Below, in pieces: positions 39,602-52,489 of a stretch of 64,000 bases of DNA. How positions within the stretch are numbered: position 1 is the first letter of the stretch; the number at the start of each line of letters is the position of its first letter. The notes below the pieces were generated by a model. The model searched no databases and was not told the origin of the DNA. It saw only the letters and a program-made list of their open reading frames with translations. The position numbers were made by a program, and so were the translations under genes. Origin of the DNA: Candidatus Saccharimonadales bacterium (lineage in GTDB: Bacteria > Patescibacteriota > Saccharimonadia > Saccharimonadales > JAGPDM01); contig JBGAVT010000001.1 of the NCBI GenBank assembly GCA_044227985.1, positions 6,216 to 70,215 of the forward strand, in the 5' to 3' direction.

Positions 39602-40399
39602 CTAATACAGGAAGTATATGTTAGCTTTTGTTTGAATCAACTTATCCCGAATTAGCCCTTCCAGGGCCTCTTCCAACCGTTGATCAAAAAACTCGTGTTC
39701 AAGTTGTGTCAGGCTTTGCGGACCTCTGGAAACAAAACGAAGAATGCCTGCTCTAAGCTGTCGAGTACTTCCCACAAATGTTGATTGCTTGGTATATACA
39801 CTAGCCTTCCTATGTGTTGTAAGGCCTTGTTTTTTAAGCGATGTGCCATAGTCCATCAAAGCCCAGTACCATTCGCGCGGGTTATCATGATTAAGCACTT
39901 CGATGACTTTAGATAATATCTCTTTTTCACTAGTCTTATCTTTATCAGCAAAAAAATGATGAATTATGACTGTCCGAATATTTGTTTCCACAAAGCCAAT
40001 AGGTAGATTCTTTGAATATACAAGAATTGCAGCGGCAGTATTGTAGCCTATGCCTGGAAGCTCACTAAGCAATTTCGGATCCGTAGGCGTTTCTACATCC
40101 CAGTTACGCCTGCAGATTTCTTTGGCTGATTGATGGATAAAACGAGCACGACGATAGTAACCAAGCCCCTGCCATGCGCTAACGACATCCGCTTGGGTGG
40201 CCCGTGCAAGCGTAACTACACTAGGAAACTTTTGCAAAAAACTTCGGTAATGATCAACAACCCGTGGTGCCTGTGTTTGCTGTAACATAATTTCGCTCAC
40301 AAGGATTTTGTAAAAATCTGTTGTACTACGCCAAGGAAAGTCTCGTTTACTATGTCTATAAAATGCCCATACGAGATTATGGAAGCTAGAGACGGTCAT
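39602..40399 (-). CDS. HhH-GPD DNA glycosylase, MutY/adenine-glycosylase-like, lacking the 4Fe-4S cysteine loop
   Basis: SEIMLQQTQ motif, helix-hairpin-helix LPGIGYNTAAAIL, catalytic D. No C-x6-C-x2-C-x5-C cluster in the C-terminus. Overlaps tyrA by 14 nt. Confidence 0.65.
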   Translation of the reverse strand: MTVSSFHNLVWAFYRHSKRDFPWRSTTDFYKILVSEIMLQQTQAPRVVDHYRSFLQKFPSVVTLARATQADVVSAWQGLGYYRRARFIHQSAKEICRRNWDVETPTDPKLLSELPGIGYNTAAAILVYSKNLPIGFVETNIRTVIIHHFFADKDKTSEKEILSKVIEVLNHDNPREWYWALMDYGTSLKKQGLTTHRKASVYTKQSTFVGSTRQLRAGILRFVSRGPQSLTQLEHEFFDQRLEEALEGLIRDKLIQTKANIYFLY

Positions 40400-41135
40400 G
40401 AATTTGCTGTGCTTGATCCAAAAAACGCTTTCGGACTTCTGAGGCGTACGGATTGGCAGATTCCACCGTCAGGAACAAAGCGTCAGAATGTTGTTTTTCC
40501 TGTTCAGCTAGCGCAAGAAGTTTTTTATAGTAACCGGTAGTCAGAGAGGCTTCAGAAACACCGAGTTCAAGTAGACTTCGTCCAATAAAAAATGTAAGGC
40601 CTTGAATGGTAGCCATCTGTCTATCATGCTCCATTGGAGAAATTTCGACTACTTCACCTCCTTTTTCATCGATAATCGAAGTTAGCGTCTTTGTCCAAGG
40701 CGTTTGACGAAGTTCGTGGAAGACCCATTGGCGACTCTTCAGATCACCGCCTGTACTTTGGGGTCCGAACAATGGGTGGCTAGCAATCAGTCCGACATCT
40801 TCGGAGAAAGTTCGTAACATAATCTCACTCGGTCGCTCCTTAACCGAAAGTACGTCGATTATTGTAGCTCCAGGTTGAACGATTGGCGCAAGTTGTTGGC
40901 ATACAATTTCGAAATCAGAAAATGGGACTGCAATCCAGATCAAGTCTGCCTTGCCTGCCATCTCAAGATTAACTCTCGTTGTTTTTGCGCCCTCGAATTG
41001 GCTATCATTAGGATCAACCGCAACAACTGATTGGAACCCAAAGCTTTCAAGAACATGCGCTAATAATTGTCCAAATGGCCCAAAACCAACTATCGAAGTA
41101 GTCGATTGTTTTAGGTTAGGAAGTTGGCTGCTCAT
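40386..41135 (-). CDS. tyrA: Prephenate (or arogenate) dehydrogenase
   Basis: NAD Rossmann IVGFGPFGQLLAHVL, TyrA core (…IASHPLFGPQS…). Confidence 0.8.
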   Translation of the reverse strand: MSSQLPNLKQSTTSIVGFGPFGQLLAHVLESFGFQSVVAVDPNDSQFEGAKTTRVNLEMAGKADLIWIAVPFSDFEIVCQQLAPIVQPGATIIDVLSVKERPSEIMLRTFSEDVGLIASHPLFGPQSTGGDLKSRQWVFHELRQTPWTKTLTSIIDEKGGEVVEISPMEHDRQMATIQGLTFFIGRSLLELGVSEASLTTGYYKKLLALAEQEKQHSDALFLTVESANPYASEVRKRFLDQAQQIHDRL

Positions 41136-41140
41136 ACGTT

Positions 41141-42055
41141 TTAAATTTTTGTTAGCCAGTTGTCGCTTAATTCGTGTTCACCACGAACAATGGCTTCAAA
41201 ACTATCACTAATCTGCTTAGTTATTTTTCCGGGAGTTTGGCTAATTTCACGTCGATCAATTCCTGCTACCCATGAAACCTTAGCAGCGGTACCTGTCACA
41301 AAGGCTTCTTCAGCAGTATATAGTTGACTACGACGGATAGGGCTTTCTTCGATCGGTATGTTATGCAGCGCTGCCAGCTCAACCACACAGCGGCGAGTTA
41401 TGCCTTCGAGTAAATCTCCGCCTAGACCTGGTGTCAGTAACACACCATGACGAACAATAAATAAATTCATGACTGCGCCTTCGCCGACATCACCCTTATG
41501 ATCAAGCATAATAGCGCTGTCAAAGCCGTTTGCCTGAGCCTCTTCAATCGCCATTGCTGCATTGATGTAAGCACCTGAAGCTTTGGCTTTAGCAGGGATA
41601 GCGTTGTCCGGCACCCGAATCCAACTACTGGTAGCAAGCTGCAATCCTTTACTACTATCGAGGTAATCCTCAAGATTCATAACATATACCGCTAACTGAT
41701 ATTCACCTGAGATCTTAGGTCCAAGTGCTATATCAGATCGATAGATAAATGGTCGTATATAGATATCCTGGTTTGGGTTATTAGCCTTCACAGTATCACT
41801 GATAATATGAGCTAATTTATCGGCAGTCAGTTTGTATGGAAAACCAAGAATCTTAACACTTTCGATCATACGCTTGGCATGATCAGCTAATCGCAGGATT
41901 GCCACAGAGCCATCAGCTTGTTTGTAGCCACGGAGTCCAGCAAATGTAGCTATAGCATACTGCAACCCTGCTGTAGCAATTGGTACATTTGCATTCTTGA
42001 AGTCGATAATCTCACCTTCAAAATATGCTTTTTCTAAATAATCATTATGCGTCAT
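41141..42055 (-). CDS. Class-IV (fold type IV) aminotransferase, BCAT-like; probable aromatic/branched-chain aminotransferase
   Basis: GLQYAIATFAGLRGY (BCAT Y-x-x-x-x-F-E-G-x-R pattern), …EAFVTGTAAKV… (class-IV PLP lysine region). Confidence 0.75.
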   Translation of the reverse strand: MTHNDYLEKAYFEGEIIDFKNANVPIATAGLQYAIATFAGLRGYKQADGSVAILRLADHAKRMIESVKILGFPYKLTADKLAHIISDTVKANNPNQDIYIRPFIYRSDIALGPKISGEYQLAVYVMNLEDYLDSSKGLQLATSSWIRVPDNAIPAKAKASGAYINAAMAIEEAQANGFDSAIMLDHKGDVGEGAVMNLFIVRHGVLLTPGLGGDLLEGITRRCVVELAALHNIPIEESPIRRSQLYTAEEAFVTGTAAKVSWVAGIDRREISQTPGKITKQISDSFEAIVRGEHELSDNWLTKI

Positions 42056-42345
42056 TTCCGTAACTCCTCAATTTCTGCTTCAATTGCCATCTCATGAAGC
42101 GTATCCCAAATCGTATCAATCCGTCGAATTGAAAGTTTATGTTTTGCAGCTAATTGCCGCTGTTTTTGCATGACCTTTTTCCATCGAGCAAGATTCTTAA
42201 TGGGAAGTTTATGTTTATGTTTAATAATCGCTACTTGCTTTACCGCTTTTTGTCGCTTCACCAAAAGACTCATCAGAGTCGTGTCAATTTGGTCAATCTC
42301 ATGACGTAAATCTGCTAATTCTTTCGGTTCTCTCATGCTACCCAT
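42052..42345 (-). CDS. Chorismate mutase (AroQ class, monofunctional)
   Basis: LRHEIDQIDTTLMSLLVKRQKAVKQVAIIK… is the AroQ helical signature. 97 aa. Confidence 0.8.
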   Translation of the reverse strand: MGSMREPKELADLRHEIDQIDTTLMSLLVKRQKAVKQVAIIKHKHKLPIKNLARWKKVMQKQRQLAAKHKLSIRRIDTIWDTLHEMAIEAEIEELRK

Positions 42346-42381
42346 GATAGCACAAATCCTTTCAATTTTATGATGTAGTAA

Positions 42382-43464
42382 CTAAAGTTTACGTGCATTT
42401 TGTTGCAAAAGTGCATCAAGCAATACAATAGCCATCATAGCCTCAACAATTGGCACCGCTCGTGGCAACACTGCAGGGTCATGACGACCTTTAAGATTCT
42501 CTAACGTAACCTCGTTACCGTCACTATCGACAGTATTTTGAGTTTTTAAAACTGTTGAGGTTGGCTTAAAGGCTACATTGCACACAATCGGCTCACCATT
42601 GCTGATACCGCCCTGCACACCACCTGAATTATTTGTTTTTGTGCCGATTTTACCTTTTTTAGCAACAAACTCATCATTGTGCTCAAGCCCTGTCATACGA
42701 GTTCCGCCAAAACCGCTACCAATTTCAAAACCCTTAGTAGCGTTGATTGAAAGCATCGCCTTTGCTAGCTCAGCTTCAAGTCGGTCATAAACTGGTTCAC
42801 CTAGACCAACAGGAACATTTCGAGCGACAACCGTGATCACACCACCGACAGAGTTTCCATCCTGTTTCATCCGTTTAACTAGCTCAATCATCTTTTCAGC
42901 CGCAACAGGATCAGCACAACGGACAATATTAGCTTCTACGTTATCTCGAGTAAATGAATCAACATCAAGCTCAGCGGTAATTTCGTGGATTTGTTTAACA
43001 CTGGCAACAATCTCAATACCATTTTGAATCAAAATTTTGCGAGCTATCGCACCAGCCATAATTCTGGCTACAGTTTCACGAGCACTGCTACGTCCACCAC
43101 CCGCAACCGCACGTCGACCGTACTTCTGCTCATAAGTAAAATCTGCATGACTGGGTCGATAGACTTTTGCGAGATTGCCATAATCCTGAGAACGTTGATC
43201 TTTATTACGAATGAGCATGGCAATCGGCGAGCCGAGTGTGATTCCTTCGGAAATTCCAGATAGAATTTCTACCTGATCTGGTTCATCTCTGTCTGTTGTA
43301 ACAACACTTTGGCCAGGTCGACGGCGATCAAGTTCAACTTGAATATCTTCTAGAGATATCTCAATCCCGGCAGGGCAACCGTCAATAACAACACCGACTC
43401 CAGCCCCGTGACTCTCACCAAAACTAGTAATTTGATACAAATTTCCAAAACTATTTCCGGGCAT
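42382..43464 (-). CDS. aroC: Chorismate synthase
   Basis: [18 protein letters not shown]…; AGAGG core. ATG at 43464 with AGAGGAG RBS 7 nt upstream. Confidence 0.9.
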
Positions 43465-43465
43465 A

Positions 43466-44134
43466 TTATTCTCCTCTTTCAATTACTTCTAGCATAGCAT
43501 CAACGCTCATTTGACCCGGAGCAACACTTGAACCAGTTGCGACAAACATTAATGCACTACCTCTTTTCAATGCCTCAACTCGCAGACCATCATCATCACC
43601 GCTCATAGGGATCAATGCAAAATTTTGTTTTGGATAATCTGTAAATAAACTAAATAATCGAGCAGACTCAGCGCTGGAGCTCACCCGACAAGCAATTTTA
43701 ATGATCGATGGACTATGCTGTTTAGCAATTTCTATAAGATCATTCAGCTTTTGCATAGTCGGCGTTCGTTCAAAATTATGATACGACAATAGTCTTTTTT
43801 CTTGAACTATTTTTTCTACTAGCATTTTATTTGAGATATCAATATCGATGTAAATAGTATTTTTGAGCCCAGATAATTCCTGTAATAATCGAGTGCGTTT
43901 GTCTTCATCCCCATCGAACCTCCCGCCTTCATTTACGCTTCGGAGTGTTACTATAACTTTCTGTCGAACTAGTTTAATTGCTTCAACAATGGCTTGCTCA
44001 TTAAGCTTATTCAAATAATCAAGACGCCATTCAACTAACAAAATTTCTTCGGGTAGCTGGCGAAACTGCTCAAGGCTTACAACAATTGTTGACTCTGCGA
44101 CCACACCGACAATTCGATCTACTAGTTGGCTCAT
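43466..44134 (-). CDS. aroD: 3-dehydroquinate dehydratase, type I
   Basis: Type-I TIM-barrel pattern (…VVSLEQ…VEWRLDYL…TLRSVNEGG…YIDIDIS…). Confidence 0.8.
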
Positions 44135-44922
44135 TGTCCGATCGCCTCACGCATAACTTGTTGTGGGGCATCTCTTCCAGTAAAAATTCGAAACTGCTCA
44201 TAAGCTTGTGCGAGTAGCAATTCATAACCAGAAATTGTTGAGGCTCCAATATGTTTCGCCTGTTGTACCAATACGGTCTCAGGTGGCTTATAAATCGATT
44301 CGAATACAAGCTGGTCGGGATTTAAAAATTTTACATCAATCGGTGTTTCATTGACAAGCTCCGCCATTCCAACACTTGTAGTATTAATTATCGTGTCTAT
44401 ATCTTCGGTGTCATCAATCTCAGTAATAACATTTATCCCCGGGAAATCTTGTCGTAATTTTTGAAGTCGGCTGACTGTTCGATTATAAACAAGCACCTCA
44501 AGCGGCTCGGAGTGAAGCGCTGCGTAAACAGCAGCACGAGCGGCACCGCCAGCACCAAGAATCAAAACCCGCTTTGCTCGCAATCCATCGACAGCATTTA
44601 ACGGTCGGCTATACCCAAGCCAATCCGTATTACTGCCAATCCAGCGATTATTTCTTTTTACCATTGTGTTAGCAACACCAATATTTCTAGCAGCATGATC
44701 AAGTTCGTCGGCTACTTCGTATGCTAGCGCTTTCAATGGCATTGTAACGCTAAAACCATCGAAATTAGTAGCCTCAGAGCTCCACCACTTACGGAAATCA
44801 TCCTCCGTGACCTGAACTGCTGTATAGTTGGCAGAGATGCCGAGCGCGGCAAATCCTGCACTGTGAATTATTGGTGACAAGCTATGTTCAACTGGATTTC
44901 CAATGACTGCAAACCGTCTCAT
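44131..44922 (-). CDS. aroE: Shikimate dehydrogenase
   Basis: FAVIGNPVEHSLSPIIHSAGF…, NADP Rossmann ILGAGGAARA. Confidence 0.85.
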   Translation of the reverse strand: MRRFAVIGNPVEHSLSPIIHSAGFAALGISANYTAVQVTEDDFRKWWSSEATNFDGFSVTMPLKALAYEVADELDHAARNIGVANTMVKRNNRWIGSNTDWLGYSRPLNAVDGLRAKRVLILGAGGAARAAVYAALHSEPLEVLVYNRTVSRLQKLRQDFPGINVITEIDDTEDIDTIINTTSVGMAELVNETPIDVKFLNPDQLVFESIYKPPETVLVQQAKHIGASTISGYELLLAQAYEQFRIFTGRDAPQQVMREAIGQ

Positions 44923-45416
44923 GACTCAACTCCAATTTGTTGATATATTTCAATAGCGAGCTGCTCAGGAGTTTTAATTCTGGCGTCAATCGTTATCGTT
45001 GCATACTTTTGATATAATTTTTGTCGAGTATTAAAAAGAACTAATGCAGCATCTTTGTCCTTCATTAAGGGACGATCAGTATCACCAACACGCCCAACTG
45101 ACGTCTGAAAATCAATATAAAGATAAATCACCGAAGCATTTTCACATAAAGGTTGCATCGCTTCGGAACTTTCAACCACACCACCACCCGTAGCGATGAC
45201 TGCATTACTCTCAACTGCCAGCTGTTTAGCAAGTCCAGTTTCATAGCGACGAAAATTCTCTTCACCTTCTTCCTTGAAAAAATCTGCTGTTGTCATTTTC
45301 AAGTCTTCTTCAAGTACGGCGTCCATATCAAGCACCCCTACTTCTAAAAGACTGGCCAACTCACGTGCTACAGTCGATTTTCCCGACCCCATAAAACCAA
45401 TTAGAACTACCTTCAT
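44919..45416 (-). CDS. aroK: Shikimate kinase
   Basis: P-loop VLIGFMGSGKSTVAREL; ATGGG; …RPL…. Confidence 0.85.
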   Translation of the reverse strand: MKVVLIGFMGSGKSTVARELASLLEVGVLDMDAVLEEDLKMTTADFFKEEGEENFRRYETGLAKQLAVESNAVIATGGGVVESSEAMQPLCENASVIYLYIDFQTSVGRVGDTDRPLMKDKDAALVLFNTRQKLYQKYATITIDARIKTPEQLAIEIYQQIGVES

Positions 45417-46669
45417 ACAACGTCCTCAAAAATAATACCGAAATGCTTAAGTTTGCTCCAAAAATCTGGAAACGATTTCTCGACCACATCAGGATCTTCG
45501 ATAATAATCCCCTCCACTACTGCTGAAAGTGGACTAATCGACATAGCCATACGATGATCGTGATAGGTTTTTATCCTAGCTGACGAAATTACACTTGGAA
45601 AAATTCGGATACTAGCAGTATCAATCTCTGTTCTTATTCCTAGCTTTTCCAGCTCAGTCTTCATAGCAACCAATCTATCAGTTTCTTTTCCTGGGAGTGT
45701 TGATAATCCGCTTATGTAACTTTCTTCAATGGCTTGCGTTGCTAAAACGGCTGCGGTTTGAGCAGTGTCTGAGCAATTTATCATATTGTAGTTGATCGAC
45801 TTGATCTTTTTAGCAGGAGAAACAACTAGTCCATCAGCTGTTTCTGAAACTTGCGCTCCCATATTTTCTAAAACTTTAACAAACTCAATATCACCCTGTG
45901 CCGAGTTGAGGCTAATGTATGGAATCTGGACTATTTGCTGACGAAGCATTCCAAATGACCACATATAGCCAGCCGCCGCAGCATCCGCTTCAACAATTAT
46001 CTCATTAGACGTTCTTAATTGATTTTGTATCGTGCGAGTCAAATCGCTATATGCAACAGACACCGGCTTATTCTTTTGAAGAATCTCAAGTCCCGATTCG
46101 AACAATGGTGAAATAAGCTGTAAGGCAGTAATAAATTGGCTACTAATTGATGCGTCAACTTCAATGATTTTTTTCTCTTTTGGCACAATTGCACCAGAAA
46201 CTAGTATTGGCAATCTTCCTGATTCGCCTTGTTCAGATATTTGTGCGCCAAGTGATTTCAGCGCATTGATTAATATTCCCATTGGGCGTTTTTTCAATCG
46301 TTCACTGCCGGTGATAATAACTTCAAATCCCGGTAAGAATGCTACAAAAGCTAATAAAAATCGTGAAGTTGTCCCAGCTGGGCCACAATCAATCGTTAGT
46401 TGCTTTGGAGTGATCGTATCAACTGAATTCTCTATAATCCAATCACCACTTTGGCTAATAGAAATATCAATTCCCAGATCGATTAATGAATCACGCAGCG
46501 TTAAACTATCTACACTGAGACTGGGATTAATGACAGTAATCGGACGCGGGTCAATACTCGCAGCGATTAAAGCACGATTAGTAATGCTTTTACTTCCCGG
46601 CACATCCAAAATTATCGGATCACTTGATGGTTTCCAGTTGGCGTCTCGTGTCAGCTTTATAGCATTCAT
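45413..46669 (-). CDS. aroA: 3-phosphoshikimate 1-carboxyvinyltransferase (EPSP synthase)
   Basis: VPGSKSITNRALIAAS, …YHDHRMAMS…. Confidence 0.9.
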   Translation of the reverse strand: MNAIKLTRDANWKPSSDPIILDVPGSKSITNRALIAASIDPRPITVINPSLSVDSLTLRDSLIDLGIDISISQSGDWIIENSVDTITPKQLTIDCGPAGTTSRFLLAFVAFLPGFEVIITGSERLKKRPMGILINALKSLGAQISEQGESGRLPILVSGAIVPKEKKIIEVDASISSQFITALQLISPLFESGLEILQKNKPVSVAYSDLTRTIQNQLRTSNEIIVEADAAAAGYMWSFGMLRQQIVQIPYISLNSAQGDIEFVKVLENMGAQVSETADGLVVSPAKKIKSINYNMINCSDTAQTAAVLATQAIEESYISGLSTLPGKETDRLVAMKTELEKLGIRTEIDTASIRIFPSVISSARIKTYHDHRMAMSISPLSAVVEGIIIEDPDVVEKSFPDFWSKLKHFGIIFEDVV

Positions 46670-47737
46670 TTATGAACGATCCAACCACTTAAGTGCACCT
46701 AGTACGCTCTCTTCGTCAATTTTATAGTCAGTAATTACCTGCCCTATTTCACGCGGTATGGCCCATTGGATTTCCCCCGAGTGATTCTTTTTATCTCCGC
46801 GAATGGCCACTAAAAATTCTTCGGGTTCGATGCCAACATCAAGCCTAGTTGGTAGATTATATTGCACCAATAGCTCAGATACAACATCGACGAGTTCTGA
46901 CAGACCTGCCGCATACAACTCGCCGAGCATACCAAGTCCAACCGCTTCACCGTGCAGCAATGGTTTAAATGTATGATGGGACAGACTTTCGAGTGCATGA
47001 CCAAAAGTATGACCAAAATTAAGAACCTTGCGTTGGTTGGCTTCGCGTTCATCCAGAGCAACAACATCGACTTTCACCTGAACAGATTTAGCTACTAGTT
47101 TCGTCAATTTTTCTGCACCATTTTTATCAAAAACATTTTCTTTCAGATCATGAAGTATCGTATTTTTAGTAATAACTGCATGCTTAATAATCTCGCCAAA
47201 GCCTTCCACGAAAACCCGATCACTCAATGTCGAAAGACACGAGGTATTACAATATACGCCGGTTGGCTGTGTAAATGTACCAATATTATTTTTTAAACCA
47301 GCAAAATTAATGCCTGTCTTTCCACCAACTGCAGCATCGACTTGTGCCAATAGTGTTGTCGGAATATTAATAAAACGAATTCCACGTTTATAGGTTGCGG
47401 CAGCAAATCCACCTAGATCAGTTATGACCCCACCACCAACGTTGATTATCAACGCATTACGGTCGGCGCTGGCGGCATTTAATTGCTGCCAAATTGATTC
47501 AACTGTTCGAATATTCTTATACTGTTCGCCAGGTTCAATTTCGATTAATTGAGGACTATTTATGCGCTTACTGCTAATAGCGTCAAAATATAGTGGTGCT
47601 ACATTGCTATCACTCACAACAAAAATTTGGGACACATCAGTTGGGATCATCTGGGTCAGACGATCAAAATCTTGTTCAACCAAGATTTGGTAGCTAGATC
47701 TTGTCGCACTAGTCGTGAGATCAATTTGATTACTCAT
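46670..47737 (-). CDS. aroB: 3-dehydroquinate synthase
   Basis: GGGVITDLGGFAAATYKRGIRFINIPTTLLAQVDAAVGGKTGIN; metal-binding HxxxH region. Confidence 0.9.
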   Translation of the reverse strand: MSNQIDLTTSATRSSYQILVEQDFDRLTQMIPTDVSQIFVVSDSNVAPLYFDAISSKRINSPQLIEIEPGEQYKNIRTVESIWQQLNAASADRNALIINVGGGVITDLGGFAAATYKRGIRFINIPTTLLAQVDAAVGGKTGINFAGLKNNIGTFTQPTGVYCNTSCLSTLSDRVFVEGFGEIIKHAVITKNTILHDLKENVFDKNGAEKLTKLVAKSVQVKVDVVALDEREANQRKVLNFGHTFGHALESLSHHTFKPLLHGEAVGLGMLGELYAAGLSELVDVVSELLVQYNLPTRLDVGIEPEEFLVAIRGDKKNHSGEIQWAIPREIGQVITDYKIDEESVLGALKWLDRS

Positions 47738-47739
47738 GG

Positions 47740-48783
47740 CTACGCTACCGCCGAGTCGGCCAACCTTCTCAGCAAGGTTTCGGTTTCAGCAACATTCACC
47801 GTAGGATCAGTTTTGCTGTAGCCATATGTAGAGTCTTTAGCATCCTTGATCGTACCTTTTTCAAGGTAGCTTTCAAGCATGATTCCACGTATATGATGTT
47901 TTATATCTGAGTCTTGAATAAGATTAATCGCGGCTTCAGCTGCTCGATATTGTCCATCAGCCGACTTCGATCCATTACTGTACCCAGCACCGTTACCATG
48001 GCTAGCATCAATTATCACACCGAGGTTATCGATTCCAACTTCATTCAGCGCTATCACTGCCTGTTCTACAGACTCGACATCGATATTACTTCGAAGACCG
48101 CCACGAGCATCCTGTACGCCTCGCAATATAATTCCACCGGCTATGCCACCTGGTGTGTCAATCATAGAAAACTGTCCATCTTCGTCAAGTAATGGGACAT
48201 TATCATGCTGTGATTTTACAGCCAACATTGCTTGAGCCGCAGTCAACATATCACCAAAAATACCATTTTTTGAAAGTGTTGGAATCTCGGGCATGCTACT
48301 AGCTTGTAAGCGCACATTCTGATCAGTCACATTACGCGCTCCAATCCATTGTGCCGCCAAGATATCTCCGTAATACTGACCCTGGCTTGGAGCTAGTAAT
48401 TCTATTGCAATTGGAAAACCAGCATTTACGAGTTGCGCCAATGCCGATCGAGCCTGTGGAACTGATTCACTTTCAAGTCCTCTCCAGCCAGTGGTTGTTC
48501 GTGGTTTCAGCGGATTAGCACGAATTACAACTTTAACTTGCTTCGAGACTTCGCCAATCAATCCCTCGATCTTAGTAGCAAACTCAAAGATTGCTCCAGA
48601 ATCATCAAGACTACAAGGACCAACAAAAGCTAAAAACCTTTTATCGCGGCCTTCTAAAATTTCGATAATTTCTCTGCGATGCTGTGTCAATTGTATAGCT
48701 GCTGCCGAGGTAATCGGGTGCCGTGCCCGAAGATCACTCGGGATAATCATTTTTTTACTATTTGTCTTCATTGTTAGTTCCAT
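47740..48783 (-). CDS. aroG: 3-deoxy-7-phosphoheptulonate (DAHP) synthase, class I-alpha
   Basis: …KRFLAFVGPCSLDD… (metal-binding Cys) and about 347 aa typical of AroG/F/H-type. Confidence 0.9.
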   Translation of the reverse strand: MELTMKTNSKKMIIPSDLRARHPITSAAAIQLTQHRREIIEILEGRDKRFLAFVGPCSLDDSGAIFEFATKIEGLIGEVSKQVKVVIRANPLKPRTTTGWRGLESESVPQARSALAQLVNAGFPIAIELLAPSQGQYYGDILAAQWIGARNVTDQNVRLQASSMPEIPTLSKNGIFGDMLTAAQAMLAVKSQHDNVPLLDEDGQFSMIDTPGGIAGGIILRGVQDARGGLRSNIDVESVEQAVIALNEVGIDNLGVIIDASHGNGAGYSNGSKSADGQYRAAEAAINLIQDSDIKHHIRGIMLESYLEKGTIKDAKDSTYGYSKTDPTVNVAETETLLRRLADSAVA

Positions 48784-48801
48784 TGTAGTCCTTTTTCGGT
48801 T

Positions 48802-48832
48802 AAATAAAAAACCGCTCTATGTTTGTGAGCGG
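48802..48832 (-). terminator. Intrinsic terminator in the aro-operon leader (candidate attenuator)
   Basis: Minus strand: CCGCTC-ACAAACATA-GAGCGG followed by TTTTTTATTT. The T-tract ends 18 nt upstream of the aroG ATG (RBS AAAGGA). Confidence 0.6.
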
Positions 48833-48862
48833 CTATTTTGGCAATTTTTAATAAAACGTCAA

Positions 48863-48919
48863 TTAGTCCGCTGTTGCGTACCAATAAAAGCTAAAAAAGT
48901 TTGCACTGTTGTTAATCAT
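48863..48919 (-). CDS. Candidate aro-operon leader peptide (18 aa, Phe/Tyr/Trp-rich)
   Basis: Minus strand: ATG ATT AAC AAC AGT GCA AAC TTT TTT AGC TTT TAT TGG TAC GCA ACA GCG GAC TAA = MINNSANFFSFYWYATAD. Six aromatic codons fall within 7 consecutive positions. The stop lies about 30 nt upstream of the terminator hairpin. Confidence 0.55.
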   Translation of the reverse strand: MINNSANFFSFYWYATAD

Positions 48920-48926
48920 AAAATTA

Positions 48927-48955
48927 AATTTATCATAGATTAATGTATATGTCAA
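48927..48955 (-). promoter_or_regulatory. Candidate sigma70-type promoter for the aro leader
   Basis: Minus strand: TTGACA - 17 nt - TAAATT. The predicted TSS falls about at the leader-peptide ATG, so the leader may be leaderless. Weak -10; other candidate promoters lie within 60 nt. Confidence 0.3.
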
Positions 48956-49133
48956 AATATAATGATTTAATATAGTCAAAAATGGTGTTTAGTTTAATAT
49001 AGATCTACACCGTAGTACAAGGCAAATTTTTATAGACTGCTGAATCGATCTTACAATTTTTCTGAACAGCACCTTCAAAAAGACTACGGTGAAATATATT
49101 TTTCACATTGGATAAATCGCTAGCAACTCCTAA

Positions 49134-50795
49134 TTAGTTGAATAATTGCGGTCTGGTGACATCAGAAATTTTATGGGACTCACCGCCCTCGGTCGATATT
49201 ACAAAATCAGATGACTGTCCTGGGCTATTGTCGTAGTACACAATCGTATCATTTCCAATCCAGTTTATATCGCTACTAATTGAATCTGCCGTAGCGATTA
49301 TTTTACTCTCAGAAGCGCCAGAAAGACTACGTACAACTATTACGTTCTTACCATCGCGTTCTTCAACCCACGCTGCTTTCGATAAATCTCTAGAATAGCG
49401 AATTACTAAATCTTGTAATCCTGCTGGCTCACCCTCAAGCTGTGTTTGGTTGCTACTGTCTGTATTAAGCTGCCACCAATCAAGCGCCTGTTCATCTTTC
49501 TTCTGAGAGCTAAAGACTAGTTGGTTGACGGAAGTAAGATTAAGATTATAGATAGTCGCAGCTAGATGGTTTTTGGGATCTACCCCAGCAGTAGACATGC
49601 TTCGCAGTCCCGTAAAACTAGCACCACTGGTCTCAAATAGCGTGAAGAAAATTCTATCTTTTACTAGTTGTATAGAACCATATTGCGGGCTGCTAGAAAG
49701 CTCATCTTTAGATGACGTTTTTGTGTTAACAGTCGAGATGTAGCTATCTCCATCATTATCTTTTTTATCAACTCGTGACGAATAGACAAATGTATCACCA
49801 GACCATCCAATGGGGCTAATATAGCTAGCCTGATCGATCTTCTTATTGGAACCATCATTTGTAACCAAATAAATACTTGTTAAAAGATTACCACCTTTAT
49901 CGCGCTCCCCATTGCGTGTCGAAATTACGACCGTATCCTTTCCATTCGGTGCCGTGCTCGACATAGTACCGCTGCCCTCTTTGCCTGTTGCAGCCAAAAC
50001 GACCGACTGCTCACTGCCATCAAATCTTGAACGGTAGGTATTGTACTTGCCTTCACGTTGACTGATAAAAAAGTGCCAGCTATCAGGAACCAGAGTGACG
50101 ATTTGAGTTTTTTCACTACTTTGGTTGATGCTAAATTTATTAGCAATATAACCATTCTTTTTAACTACTATATCCACTAATGGTTGCTCGGAGTTACGTT
50201 CGACTGTAACAATAGCTCGCCCAGCCTCATCGGTTGTGATCCCTTGTTGATTGTAGCCAACATCTGCGGCTGCAATTGGTTTTTGACTAAGCCAGTCTAC
50301 CACTGTCAATTCGAGTTGCTTACCTGTCGGCACAAGATAGATTTCTCCAAAATTATTATCATTGTAGCCAAGCACAACATCTTTGCCTTGGTTTTGATAA
50401 CCTTCAATTTCAATTTTAAGTTCGGTATCACCGAACTGCATCGCTCTAAACTTAGCTCGTCCTCTACGGTCACTTTCTTCCTTCTTTCCCGCTATCGATA
50501 CTATGGCCCCTTTAATTGGCTGCTTAGTTCTATCATCGCGTATAACAACTTCAGCTTTTGTCTTCATCCCGATTATATTAAAGGCTTGAAAGCGCCATTT
50601 TGGCATGGCATAAATGGTTCCAACAGCTGCTGTTAAAAGTAAAAGTACTATAAATAATTTACCAAAAGGACTTTTCCAAAGCTTGATACATCGACGCCTA
50701 AGCCAGTGTGCCAAACCCGGCCGGCCGACGTGAATTTTCTTTTGATCAGATATTTTATGGCCTTCTGGTATTTCTCTTTTACTGTCTTCTGGCAT
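49134..50795 (-). CDS. Hypothetical membrane-anchored extracytoplasmic protein (carboxypeptidase-regulatory-like and beta-propeller-like regions)
   Basis: N-terminal TM (LFIVLLLLTAAVGTIYA); CarboxypepD_reg-like segment (KGAIVSIAGKKEESDRRGRAKF…); repetitive beta-strand-rich remainder. Confidence 0.45.
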   Translation of the reverse strand: MPEDSKREIPEGHKISDQKKIHVGRPGLAHWLRRRCIKLWKSPFGKLFIVLLLLTAAVGTIYAMPKWRFQAFNIIGMKTKAEVVIRDDRTKQPIKGAIVSIAGKKEESDRRGRAKFRAMQFGDTELKIEIEGYQNQGKDVVLGYNDNNFGEIYLVPTGKQLELTVVDWLSQKPIAAADVGYNQQGITTDEAGRAIVTVERNSEQPLVDIVVKKNGYIANKFSINQSSEKTQIVTLVPDSWHFFISQREGKYNTYRSRFDGSEQSVVLAATGKEGSGTMSSTAPNGKDTVVISTRNGERDKGGNLLTSIYLVTNDGSNKKIDQASYISPIGWSGDTFVYSSRVDKKDNDGDSYISTVNTKTSSKDELSSSPQYGSIQLVKDRIFFTLFETSGASFTGLRSMSTAGVDPKNHLAATIYNLNLTSVNQLVFSSQKKDEQALDWWQLNTDSSNQTQLEGEPAGLQDLVIRYSRDLSKAAWVEERDGKNVIVVRSLSGASESKIIATADSISSDINWIGNDTIVYYDNSPGQSSDFVISTEGGESHKISDVTRPQLFN

Positions 50796-50829: not shown

Positions 50830-51306
50830 TTAGTATTTTGCAAATAGCTGCACGCTTGAATTGTCTAATTTTATAGCAAGGGTGGATATGGGGAGTTTGG
50901 TATTTGGGTCTAATAAATCACCAACAATTTGCGCGAGTGGAACTAATACAAATGCTCGGTCTGTAAGCTGAGGATGTGGAATAGTCAATCGTTGAGAACT
51001 AATCTGTTTATCATCAAAAAGCAATATATCGATATCTATTTCGCGTGGACCCCATCGATAAGTTTCGGTTCGGCCTAAGTCAGCTTCAATTTTTTTAATA
51101 ATACTCAACACTTCTTCTGGTGTTTTATCAGTTTCAGCGGTTAAGCAGGCGTTGAGAAAATCAGGCTGGTTTTCTTCCCCCCAGGCTTTAGTTTCATAAA
51201 TACTTGATACTTTATCAATAGAAAAGTAATGTGATAATTTATCAACAGTTCTACGAATATAATCCTCTCTATCGCCAACATTGCTACCGAGCCCGAGCGC
51301 AATCAT
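50830..51306 (-). CDS. folK: 2-amino-4-hydroxy-6-hydroxymethyldihydropteridine pyrophosphokinase (HPPK)
   Basis: ALGLGSNVGD…, …GPREIDIDILLFDD…. Length 158 aa. Confidence 0.85.
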   Translation of the reverse strand: MIALGLGSNVGDREDYIRRTVDKLSHYFSIDKVSSIYETKAWGEENQPDFLNACLTAETDKTPEEVLSIIKKIEADLGRTETYRWGPREIDIDILLFDDKQISSQRLTIPHPQLTDRAFVLVPLAQIVGDLLDPNTKLPISTLAIKLDNSSVQLFAKY

Positions 51307-51902
51307 ACTTTTTTTCGGTTCAAATGCAGAACCTTCCTTCTTAGTATTATTACAGAAACTAAAAGCACATTAAAAATAAAGATGTAAAGAGGAAATGCGT
51401 AGGTAGCAAAACTCCATGTATCTATCGTTAGTAAAACTAGCAGTGAGTTAACGATGCCGAAAAGAAAGACCACATATGCTTCTGAGAGCGGGTGTGTGAA
51501 GGCTTTTTTAAAGATCGGCAACCCAGCGCTTAAGTCGGCGATGATAGAAAAAATAATAGCCAAAATACCACTACCGCTTAGTGCCCAAACAACAATTGCA
51601 AGAATTGCGAAAAAACCGCAGTAATAATCAAATTTATCCAGCTTCCAGTAAGCTTTTTTGTTCACGAAAGAGGCTAAGAATATCATCAGTGGATTGAACC
51701 CGACTATAAACGAAAGGAGCGCTTGTTTACCTACTCCTTCACTTAATGCCGCGAAGAAAGCAATCATTGGTACGATACTAAGTAGCAGCCAGCTCAGACG
51801 GTTAGGCTGCACTTTGCCAAGTAAGGTCAAACGAACATAGCTCAAACCACCCAGAAATGATATTAACGTTCCAACATAAATGAACCATTCTGGTAGCATC
51901 AA
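51303..51902 (-). CDS. Small polytopic membrane protein (about 6 TM), paralog B; possible substrate-capture/transporter component
   Basis: MMLPEWFIYVGTLISFLGGLSYVRLTLLGKVQPNRLSWLL…. Clear paralog of the upstream gene (shared KxxPNRxxW motif and helix pattern). 4-nt overlap with folK. Confidence 0.45.
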   Translation of the reverse strand: MMLPEWFIYVGTLISFLGGLSYVRLTLLGKVQPNRLSWLLLSIVPMIAFFAALSEGVGKQALLSFIVGFNPLMIFLASFVNKKAYWKLDKFDYYCGFFAILAIVVWALSGSGILAIIFSIIADLSAGLPIFKKAFTHPLSEAYVVFLFGIVNSLLVLLTIDTWSFATYAFPLYIFIFNVLLVSVIILRRKVLHLNRKKV

Positions 51903-52489
51903 TTAAATGCTTTCTGTTGTTTAAGACTGCCAAATTTAATTAATAACGCCATTATTCCCGTTATCACTGTTAAGTAGAGAGGAAACGAAAGCTCTGCAAA
52001 ACTCCATTCCTGAATTGTAAATAATGTAGTTATGCCAGATAAAAAAGTTAGCCCATAAGCGAGAACGTTCTCGGTCTCAGGATGAGTAAAGCATTTCTTC
52101 ATTGTGGGGAAACTCGCCAGACCATCAGCTGTAATCGAAAGTATAATTGCTAAACTAGCATTCTTGGTCAGCTGCCATAACATTATAGCTAAAACTACAA
52201 AAACCGCTAAGATATAATCTTGTTTTTTTGTTTGCCAATATGCATTCTTGTTAAATAGACTAGCAAGTAACACCGTCAATGGAAGTAACGATGAAGAGAG
52301 CGTCAGCAAAACCTGAATGCCAACTCCTTGATTTAGTTGCGCGAATGCTGTGATCAACGGAATTAAAAACCAAAAGAACCACGTTACCCTATTTGGTTTA
52401 CTCTTTCCTTGAAAAGTCGTGACTATATATCCGAGAGTCCCAATTGTATTGATAACAACTGCTACATAAACAAAATAGCTAGGTAACAT
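51899..52489 (-). CDS. Small polytopic membrane protein (about 6 TM), paralog A
   Basis: MLPSYFVYVAVVINTIGTLGYIVTTFQGKSKPNRVTWFFW…. Paralog of 51303..51902, with a 4-nt overlap. Confidence 0.45.
   Translation of the reverse strand: MLPSYFVYVAVVINTIGTLGYIVTTFQGKSKPNRVTWFFWFLIPLITAFAQLNQGVGIQVLLTLSSSLLPLTVLLASLFNKNAYWQTKKQDYILAVFVVLAIMLWQLTKNASLAIILSITADGLASFPTMKKCFTHPETENVLAYGLTFLSGITTLFTIQEWSFAELSFPLYLTVITGIMALLIKFGSLKQQKAFN

Follow-up and report, generated by a model that had tools for sequence, protein, structure and literature searches.

In a 64,000-nt stretch of contig JBGAVT010000001.1 from a Candidatus Saccharimonadales bacterium (hereafter the window), the gene aroG is preceded by a short leader which is very probably a functional ribosome-mediated attenuator of the trpL/pheL type, controlling an aroG-led shikimate/tyrosine operon in Candidatus Saccharibacteria. 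A trp/pheA-type attenuator had been proposed here in a first-pass annotation made from the letters of the window, and this proposal is now supported by a set of eleven orthologous leaders, by covariation between the competing helices and by folding of the leader with part of it occluded by a modelled ribosome. The support is thus mainly comparative, and it is from sequence that we infer the transcription start, the translation of the leader open reading frame (ORF), termination and read-through, and the amino acids sensed. The whole analysis was computational, and all coordinates given for the leader and the operon refer to the minus strand of the window.

An intergenic spacer of 350 nt (48784-49133) separates aroG from a gene encoding a 553-aa protein (49134-50795). 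Within this spacer a -35-like hexamer, TTGACA (48955-48950), is followed after 17 nt by a -10-like hexamer, TAAATT (48932-48927), which is preceded by TG; a further 7 nt (TAATTTT) lead from the end of the latter to the ATG of a small ORF that has no Shine-Dalgarno (SD) sequence. The site ranks best of the 12 promoter-like matches found in a 4-kb scan, with 10/12 consensus matches, but shuffled sequences give 11.2 such matches, so that the site alone is not significant. Judging from the promoter geometry, the transcription start is predicted at or next to the leader ATG, and the messenger would therefore be leaderless.

The leader ORF (48919-48863; 18 codons plus TAA) encodes MINNSANFFSFYWYATAD and reads ATG ATT AAC AAC AGT GCA AAC TTT TTT AGC TTT TAT TGG TAC GCA ACA GCG GAC TAA, codons 8-14 (F F S F Y W Y; 48898-48878) forming the putative regulatory cluster. 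The promoter, ORF and terminator described in the first-pass annotation agree base for base with the window, as do the ORF sequence and its codons 8-14; only the start codon had to be shifted, its A lying at 48919 and not at the implied 48918. The 64-kb window contains, counting both strands, 405 ORFs that start with ATG and have 12-30 codons; of these, this ORF alone has at least six aromatic codons per seven, just three attain five per seven, and F+Y+W account for 8.1 % of the residues in the long ORFs of the window.

Downstream of the leader stop codon, a spacer of 28 nt leads to a terminator hairpin, AGCCGCUC-ACAAACAUA-GAGCGGUU (48834-48810; -10.7 kcal/mol), with an 8-bp GC-rich stem (arms 48834-48827 and 48817-48810) and a 9-nt loop (48826-48818). 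The T-tract that follows, UUUUUUAUUU, ends at 48801, 17 nt before the aroG ATG (48783), and between both lies the aroG SD, AAGGA (48793-48789), 5 nt before the ATG. No other terminator-like structure in the window directly precedes a gene without ending another one.

The leader can be divided into four segments. Segment 1, AUUGGUACGC (48885-48876; codons 12-15), is predicted to pair with segment 2 in ribosome-free RNA. Segment 2, AGCGGACUA (48872-48864), is the 5' strand of the antiterminator; it spans the last leader codons and the stop, and is a partial copy of the terminator 3' arm. Segment 3, UAGCCGCUC (48835-48827), is common to the antiterminator, as its 3' strand, and to the terminator, as its 5' arm, while segment 4 comprises the terminator 3' arm, GAGCGGUU, and the U-tract, UUUUUUAUUU (48817-48801). 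In the antiterminator AGCGG(A)CUA (48872-48864) pairs with UAGCCGCU (48835-48828), with weaker distal pairs in addition; the competing AGCGG pairing noticed earlier is real, and the helix is longer than had been described.

According to the mechanism that we propose, transcription would start at the A of the leader ATG or next to it, giving a leaderless mRNA, and a ribosome would load on the 5'-terminal AUG and trail the RNA polymerase. With ample charged Phe- and Tyr-tRNA (possibly also Trp-tRNA), this ribosome would reach the last codons and the stop and cover segment 2 (AGCGGACUA), leaving segment 3 free to pair with segment 4; the terminator would then form and stop transcription at the U-tract, 17 nt before aroG. 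Under a shortage of charged aromatic tRNAs, the ribosome would stall on codons 8-12 and cover segment 1, segment 2 would pair with segment 3 once the latter is made, and with the terminator 5' arm sequestered the polymerase would enter aroG.

To place the leader in a comparative frame, the DNA upstream of every reachable AroG relative was collected, which yielded 11 distinct leaders (AroG protein identity 41-92 %). An identical AroG protein is found on 23 metagenomic contigs, and its 90 % cluster includes MBP6880912.1, labelled Candidatus Saccharibacteria bacterium; the three matches in the genome collection (92, 41 and 43 % identity) are all metagenome-assembled genomes (MAGs) bearing the label Candidatus Saccharibacteria. 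The assignment to this group is taken from these MAG and protein labels, most of the other leaders coming from metagenomic contigs without a label of their own, and together with a G+C content of about 41 % it bears out the Patescibacteria-like genome suspected at first. Among the metagenome assemblies that supplied contigs are SRR26424591, SRR8204324, JGI 3300056789 and ERZ17861834.

Each of the 11 leaders has a promoter-like site on its upstream side and, on its downstream side, a terminator whose end immediately precedes the aroG SD. The layout TTGAC[AT]-17-TAnnnT-(6-9 nt, mostly 7)-ATG, without an SD, is kept in 10 of the 11 loci, TTGAC[AT] standing at the same distance as in the window; aroG itself is preceded by an AAGGAG-like SD in most orthologous loci, unlike the leader ATGs. 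The ORFs have 15-20 codons, are rich in Phe and Tyr and sometimes contain Trp (3-8 aromatic codons; UGG in 6 of 11 leaders), and are otherwise divergent. Besides that of the window, the leader peptides are MINESASLFSFYWYALAG (L014/L033), MTAVYYQFWFFSRFGMRLF (L001-3), MILQKKTFYQFTHSM (L020), MKTNYVNYTYQVAFSGRVCL (L015), MVKWTYSYFFFAAALRRVVS (L017), MMKRSYNYFFFAAALRRVVS (L022/23), MVKRSYSYFSFAEALRRAVC (L018/32), MVKATFNYFYFTFALRRVVF (L027/28), MVRWIFNYFYFVYAYERVVI (L019/24-26) and MVKWIYNYFFFAYAYERVAI (L021), so that an aromatic-rich mini-ORF, whose conservation had been suggested as a check, does stand upstream of aroG orthologues in 11 distinct versions.

The codons of these ORFs carry signs of translation. 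ORF length stays within 15-20 codons while the stop varies among TAA, TAG and TGA. Codon 8 is Tyr in all seven of the 20-codon leaders, with TAT and TAC alternating; in the same leaders codon 10 appears as TAT, TAC, TTT or TTC, and codon 6 as TAT, TAC or TTT. Between the window and L014 there are synonymous differences at Phe11 (TTT/TTC), Ser5 (AGT/AGC) and Ser10 (AGC/AGT), the codons of Tyr12-Trp13-Tyr14 are identical and Phe8 is replaced by Leu; L001 and L003 differ by AGA/CGA, both encoding Arg. Conservation of the ORF sequence is poor except in segment 2. As indirect evidence, this substitution pattern, typical of a translated frame, suggests that selection acts on aromatic codons and not on the nucleotides as such.

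The pairing that would switch the leader is also conserved in position. A GCGG core copying the terminator 3' arm is found at nt 47-48 from the ATG in 10/10 loci having it, whatever the length of the ORF; the exception is L020, where AUAGGCG finds its complement, CGCCUAU, at the terminator. Relative to the stop codon, segment 2 falls within -16 to +3 nt in 10 of the 11 leaders, and in L020 it starts 7 nt past the stop. Next to the core, five leaders have an A-U pair, five a G-C pair and one a mismatch, and the base of the terminator 3' arm changes in step, therefore all three strands covary. This same change turns an Arg into a Glu in the peptide, which indicates that the constraint acts on the RNA.

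A change of this kind is also seen between close relatives. The window and its nearest relative, L014/L033, present just three differences within the 45-nt stretch 48872-48828, one at the bulged base (48867) and the others at 48864 and 48835; the latter two, A->G (which also turns TAA into TGA) and U->C, are partners in the CUA/UAG sub-helix and constitute a compensatory change from A-U to G-C, which lends specific support to the antiterminator of the window.

Pairs were counted on a gapless alignment anchored on the core, an anchoring which favours the four invariant core pairs. With this alignment 85.7 % of the cells of the antiterminator helix are paired, against 39-49 % when the partners are slid, and for the terminator helix of the 11 leaders the figures are 91.9 % and 36-47 %; in both cases 0/500 shuffles attain the covariation score. 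Whole-leader MAFFT alignments (A2, A3) were tried for the pair counts and discarded as unusable, since they shifted the two subgroups by one base against each other in the terminator arm. When the segment 2:3 duplex was compared with dinucleotide shuffles, at most 7 of 500 were as good in 7 of the 11 loci.

The effect of ribosome position was modelled by masking the nucleotides from -15 to +12 relative to the A-site and folding the RNA. Full-leader folding at equilibrium did not discriminate between positions, and in a second model only the RNA made before the terminator 3' arm was folded. With the A-site on the aromatic codons the terminator 5' arm is paired with a probability of 0.72-0.84 in this model, and with the A-site at the last codons or the stop the value drops to 0.00-0.60 in 10 of the 11 loci. 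For the window it is 0.81-0.83 from Phe8 to Tyr12, 0.57 at Trp13 and 0.25-0.41 from Tyr14 to the stop.

The minimum free energy (MFE) structure of the window RNA with a ribosome stalled on Phe8-Tyr12 is the antiterminator itself (AGCGG/CCGCU + CUA/UAG + UUG/CAA + CG/UG + UUU/AAA; -9.9 kcal/mol), as the folding check suggested by the first-pass annotation had anticipated, and with the ribosome at the stop codon just -2.7 kcal/mol of unrelated pairing is left. The model thus predicts Phe8 to Tyr12 as the productive stall sites; Trp13 and Tyr14 would, under the same occlusion model, be too near the antiterminator strand to act as sensing codons, so that of the Phe, Tyr and Trp codons first taken as sensors those from Phe8 to Tyr12 are retained and the last two are not.

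Segment 1 deserves a separate comment. A 1:2 hairpin (48885-48876 with 48871-48862) is present in the MFE structure of the window, and comparable but non-homologous 1:2 pairings occur in some other loci; it does not appear to be a conserved feature. In ribosome-free RNA segment 1 would act as an anti-antiterminator and possibly as a pause hairpin.

Several observations weigh against the attenuator reading and have to be set beside this evidence. Two of the leaders, L020 (3 aromatic codons of 15) and L015 (4 of 20), are not individually enriched, and three further aroG loci, L029 and L030, in which aroG directly follows purB, and the GC-rich L031 (34 % identity), have neither a mini-ORF nor a terminator. 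The covariation derives from few independent events among related sequences, on an alignment anchored by hand on the invariant cores. The antiterminator duplex of the window (-10.5 kcal/mol) is marginal and not significant, 46 of 500 shuffles being as good. L018 does not show the expected drop in 5' arm pairing, and in L019 and L021 the drop is partial.

Moreover, equilibrium folding of the full leader gives predominantly the terminator in most loci, also when a ribosome is stalled on it, therefore the choice must be kinetic and co-transcriptional; the trp attenuator of E. coli is likewise dominated by its terminator at equilibrium. The antiterminator is also predicted to form in ribosome-free RNA in many loci, and the conserved part is therefore the choice between 2:3 and 3:4, not the full 1:2/2:3/3:4 design.

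Other explanations account for part of these data. The hairpin could be the mere terminator of the upstream 553-aa gene, with aroG having its own promoter and the mini-ORF arising by chance in an AT-rich spacer, a reading already raised by the first-pass annotation. It is in fact the only terminator-like structure between the two genes, and promoter-like matches are no commoner here than in shuffles; yet it lies 300 nt past the upstream stop codon, the short distance from the end of the T-tract to the aroG ATG leaves no room for a promoter, and a conserved promoter-like site is located upstream of it, between the hairpin and the upstream gene. The ORF and its aromatic bias are, in addition, conserved through all the versions of the leader. 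The module precedes aroG in five different upstream contexts (the 553-aa protein, HPPK, a 92-aa ORF, a 409-aa ORF and, in L022, a divergently transcribed gene on the opposite strand), and a terminator belonging to the upstream gene is therefore excluded as an explanation, to the point that we give it practically no credence.

If the terminator were a constitutive leaky brake, setting a fixed low expression of the operon without conditional antitermination, the equilibrium folding, which favours the terminator in most loci at any ribosome position, and the weak antiterminator of the window would be accounted for. Such a brake would leave unexplained why an aromatic ORF is conserved, why the 3' arm is copied at a constant spacing from the ATG, why all three strands covary and why a compensatory change is seen; we regard it as very unlikely.

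Two alternatives accept more of the element. In one of them the leader is an attenuator whose mini-ORF is not translated, the choice being made by a factor acting in trans, such as an RNA-binding protein, an uncharged tRNA (T-box) or the small molecule of a riboswitch. Within the structure it is the two alternative helices that have the best support, and the ORF lacks an SD, its leaderless translation being inferred, all of which suits this view. But the Rfam search gave no match, T-boxes and riboswitches included, and the RNA from its start to the U-tract measures only about 115 nt. The ATG is fixed 6-9 nt from the -10 and the ORF keeps its length despite the varying stop codon; the aromatic positions are maintained through synonymous and Phe/Tyr swaps, a signature of translation and not of an RNA motif, on a background of poor ORF sequence conservation outside segment 2. 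Control in trans is, in our judgement, unlikely.

In the other alternative the mini-ORF is translated without sensing charged tRNA, as a TnaC-like arrest peptide, a small hydrophobic protein or a loading site for aroG translation. The peptides are hydrophobic and aromatic, and one subgroup shares a C-terminal ALRRVV, as could be expected in that case; between subgroups, conservation is limited to composition and geometry and does not extend to the peptide sequence. The C-terminal codons that are conserved are those of the antiterminator strand, Arg changing to Glu exactly where the pairing requires it. The distance from the stop codon to aroG is 67-93 nt, with the terminator in between, which does not fit reinitiation at 10-16 nt. 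There is little probability left for a peptide of this type, and ribosome-mediated attenuation remains the reading that we favour.

Concerning the amino acids sensed, Phe and Tyr are the likely ones, and the sensing of Trp is doubtful, UGG being found in no more than 6 of the 11 leaders and having an unfavourable position in that of the window. The operon itself (40386-48783, minus strand) consists of ten tightly packed genes identified by NCBIfam matches, in the order aroG, aroB, aroA, aroK, aroE, aroD, aroC, chorismate mutase, IlvE-type class IV aminotransferase and prephenate dehydrogenase, and encodes the complete route from erythrose 4-phosphate and phosphoenolpyruvate to tyrosine. AroG is a type I-alpha 3-deoxy-D-arabino-heptulosonate-7-phosphate (DAHP) synthase whose best PDB relative is the Tyr-sensitive AroF of E. 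coli. No prephenate dehydratase was found within the operon and no pheA or trp genes adjoin it, the rest of the genome not having been searched. The leader is equally rich in Phe and Tyr codons although the operon carries the Tyr branch only.

Operon layouts differ among the loci, from the full pathway of the window to at least aroG-aroB-aroA on the short L001 contig. In a second subgroup (L015, L017-L019, L021, L022, L024-L027, L032) the attenuated operon would be aroG-(aminotransferase)-chorismate mutase-prephenate dehydrogenase and the remaining shikimate genes are not adjacent, so that one leader design is found with two operon layouts. The aminotransferase of the window (41141-42055, minus strand) passes the cut-offs for branched-chain transaminases and does not belong to the class I aromatic aminotransferases. 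A distant relative has the same gene between aroG and chorismate mutase (L024-L026, 2511-3428), so that the enzyme probably catalyses the final step of Tyr (perhaps Phe) synthesis.

When the whole window was compared with Rfam at the gathering score, two tRNAs were the only matches; for 48700-49200, with E values up to 10, there was no relevant match, that is, no amino-acid leader (Trp, Phe, His, Leu, Thr), T-box or riboswitch. For Saccharibacteria or Patescibacteria the literature gave no report of attenuation, of leader peptides or of the shikimate pathway, which, the coverage being incomplete, is weak evidence of absence.

By published description, the closest case is aroR-aroF of Corynebacterium glutamicum, in which a clustered aromatic leader peptide also stands directly before an operon-heading DAHP synthase gene. 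There aroR is described as a leader peptide with Phe-Tyr-Phe upstream of the DAHP synthase gene aroF, and read-through rises when ribosomes stall at its Phe/Tyr codons, under Phe limitation (Neshat et al. 2014, as summarised in PMC11802643 and PMC7356990). The present leaders belong to Patescibacteria/Saccharibacteria and not to Actinobacteria, have more aromatic codons (3-8), often including Trp, and control either the whole shikimate pathway plus the Tyr branch, as in the window, or aroG-chorismate mutase-tyrA; moreover, aroR-aroF has experimental support, whereas the leaders described here are predicted attenuators.

The logic is also that of pheL-pheA and trpL-trpEDCBA of E. coli (Yanofsky 1981; Zurawski 1978), with an ORF containing codons for the product, a terminator and an overlapping antiterminator that is covered by a ribosome reaching the stop. 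The E. coli leaders differ in having an SD and a 5' untranslated region, while here the ATG lies 6-9 nt from the -10 without an SD. Three kinds of aromatic codons are mixed in the present leaders, the controlled gene is that of a DAHP synthase, whereas the DAHP synthase genes of E. coli are repressed by TyrR/TrpR instead, and a 1:2 anti-antiterminator does not appear to be conserved among them.

The first-pass annotation had regarded such attenuation as described essentially in Proteobacteria and Actinobacteria. A survey calls it frequent in both groups and takes the ribosome to reach 12 nt past the stop (PMC4833913). The statement falls short of what is known, an aromatic leader peptide before a DAHP synthase gene being already described in C. 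glutamicum. In Deinococcus deserti 14 leader peptides are predicted to start at the transcript 5' end (PMC4007540). Cys-rich leaderless upstream ORFs have been predicted in mycobacteria (PMC4633059). In these cases, as predicted here, the start codon of the small ORF coincides with the transcription start, codons for the relevant amino acid are over-represented in that ORF, and the leaders are likewise found upstream of genes for amino-acid biosynthesis or tRNA synthetases. They differ in phylum and in the amino acids concerned; leaderless mRNAs are common in those organisms, and the structural gene of the present system has a normal SD.

The mechanism is a textbook one and neither it nor its leaderless variant is new; the value of the finding is in its taxonomic and physiological setting. 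We lean towards regarding this leader family as the first evidence of amino-acid-responsive ribosome-mediated transcription attenuation in Patescibacteria (candidate phyla radiation). It would extend leaderless leader-peptide attenuators beyond Actinobacteria and Deinococcus; those of C. glutamicum are reportedly leaderless transcripts as well. If the reading is correct, it would imply tight coupling of transcription and translation and leaderless translation initiation in Patescibacteria, and a Saccharibacteria lineage that actively regulates, and does not merely carry, de novo aromatic amino-acid synthesis.

The conservation of an attenuator before aroG points to aromatic amino-acid synthesis in some Saccharibacteria, and suggests that they tune this synthesis to the level of tRNA charging, in contrast with the usual framing of the group as fully host-dependent for amino acids. 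In a 2024 perspective the Patescibacteria are said to lack amino-acid biosynthesis and their regulation to be virtually unknown (PMC11665869). The leader would be a concrete cis-regulatory element in a phylum for which hardly any regulatory parts are known and, with about 170 nt including the promoter and no protein factor, it could itself serve as a regulatory part.

Some further observations were made on the leaders. The terminator loops are of 9-10 nt and A-rich in 10 of the 11 leaders (L001, L014, L015, L017-L019, L021, L022, L027 and the window), that of L020 having 4 nt; loop size is kept across leaders and loop sequence is not, and the size seems large for an intrinsic terminator. A large loop may slow the closure of the hairpin, helping the antiterminator to compete. 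Across ten contigs with an identical AroG, the sole difference in 48784-48960 is an A->T in contig L012 (base 1862), at window position 48872; it is synonymous in the leader (Thr16 ACA->ACT) and abolishes the outer A-U pair of the predicted antiterminator. The 220-nt spacer of L029 contains, at about 1285-1470, a long inverted repeat, GAACCCATTCCAAAACCC ... GGGTTTTGAAATGGGTTC.

A second attenuator was considered at 23319-23298 (minus strand), where the window has its only other terminator close to a gene start, and rejected: the hairpin (-14.3 kcal/mol), which precedes a 176-aa ORF by 22 nt, is the ordinary terminator of a 67-aa gene (23543-23298 region, minus strand) that has a strong SD of its own, GAGGGGAG. 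In the neighbourhood of the operon, a tandem pair of overlapping genes for paralogous membrane proteins (196-199 aa) lies between those for aspartyl-tRNA synthetase (AspRS) and HPPK (folK) in the window (51303-52489, minus strand), and the gene order AspRS, 198-aa protein, HPPK, leader, aroG is kept in distant relatives, the 198-aa protein being encoded at 260-856 in L027 and at 256-852 in L032.

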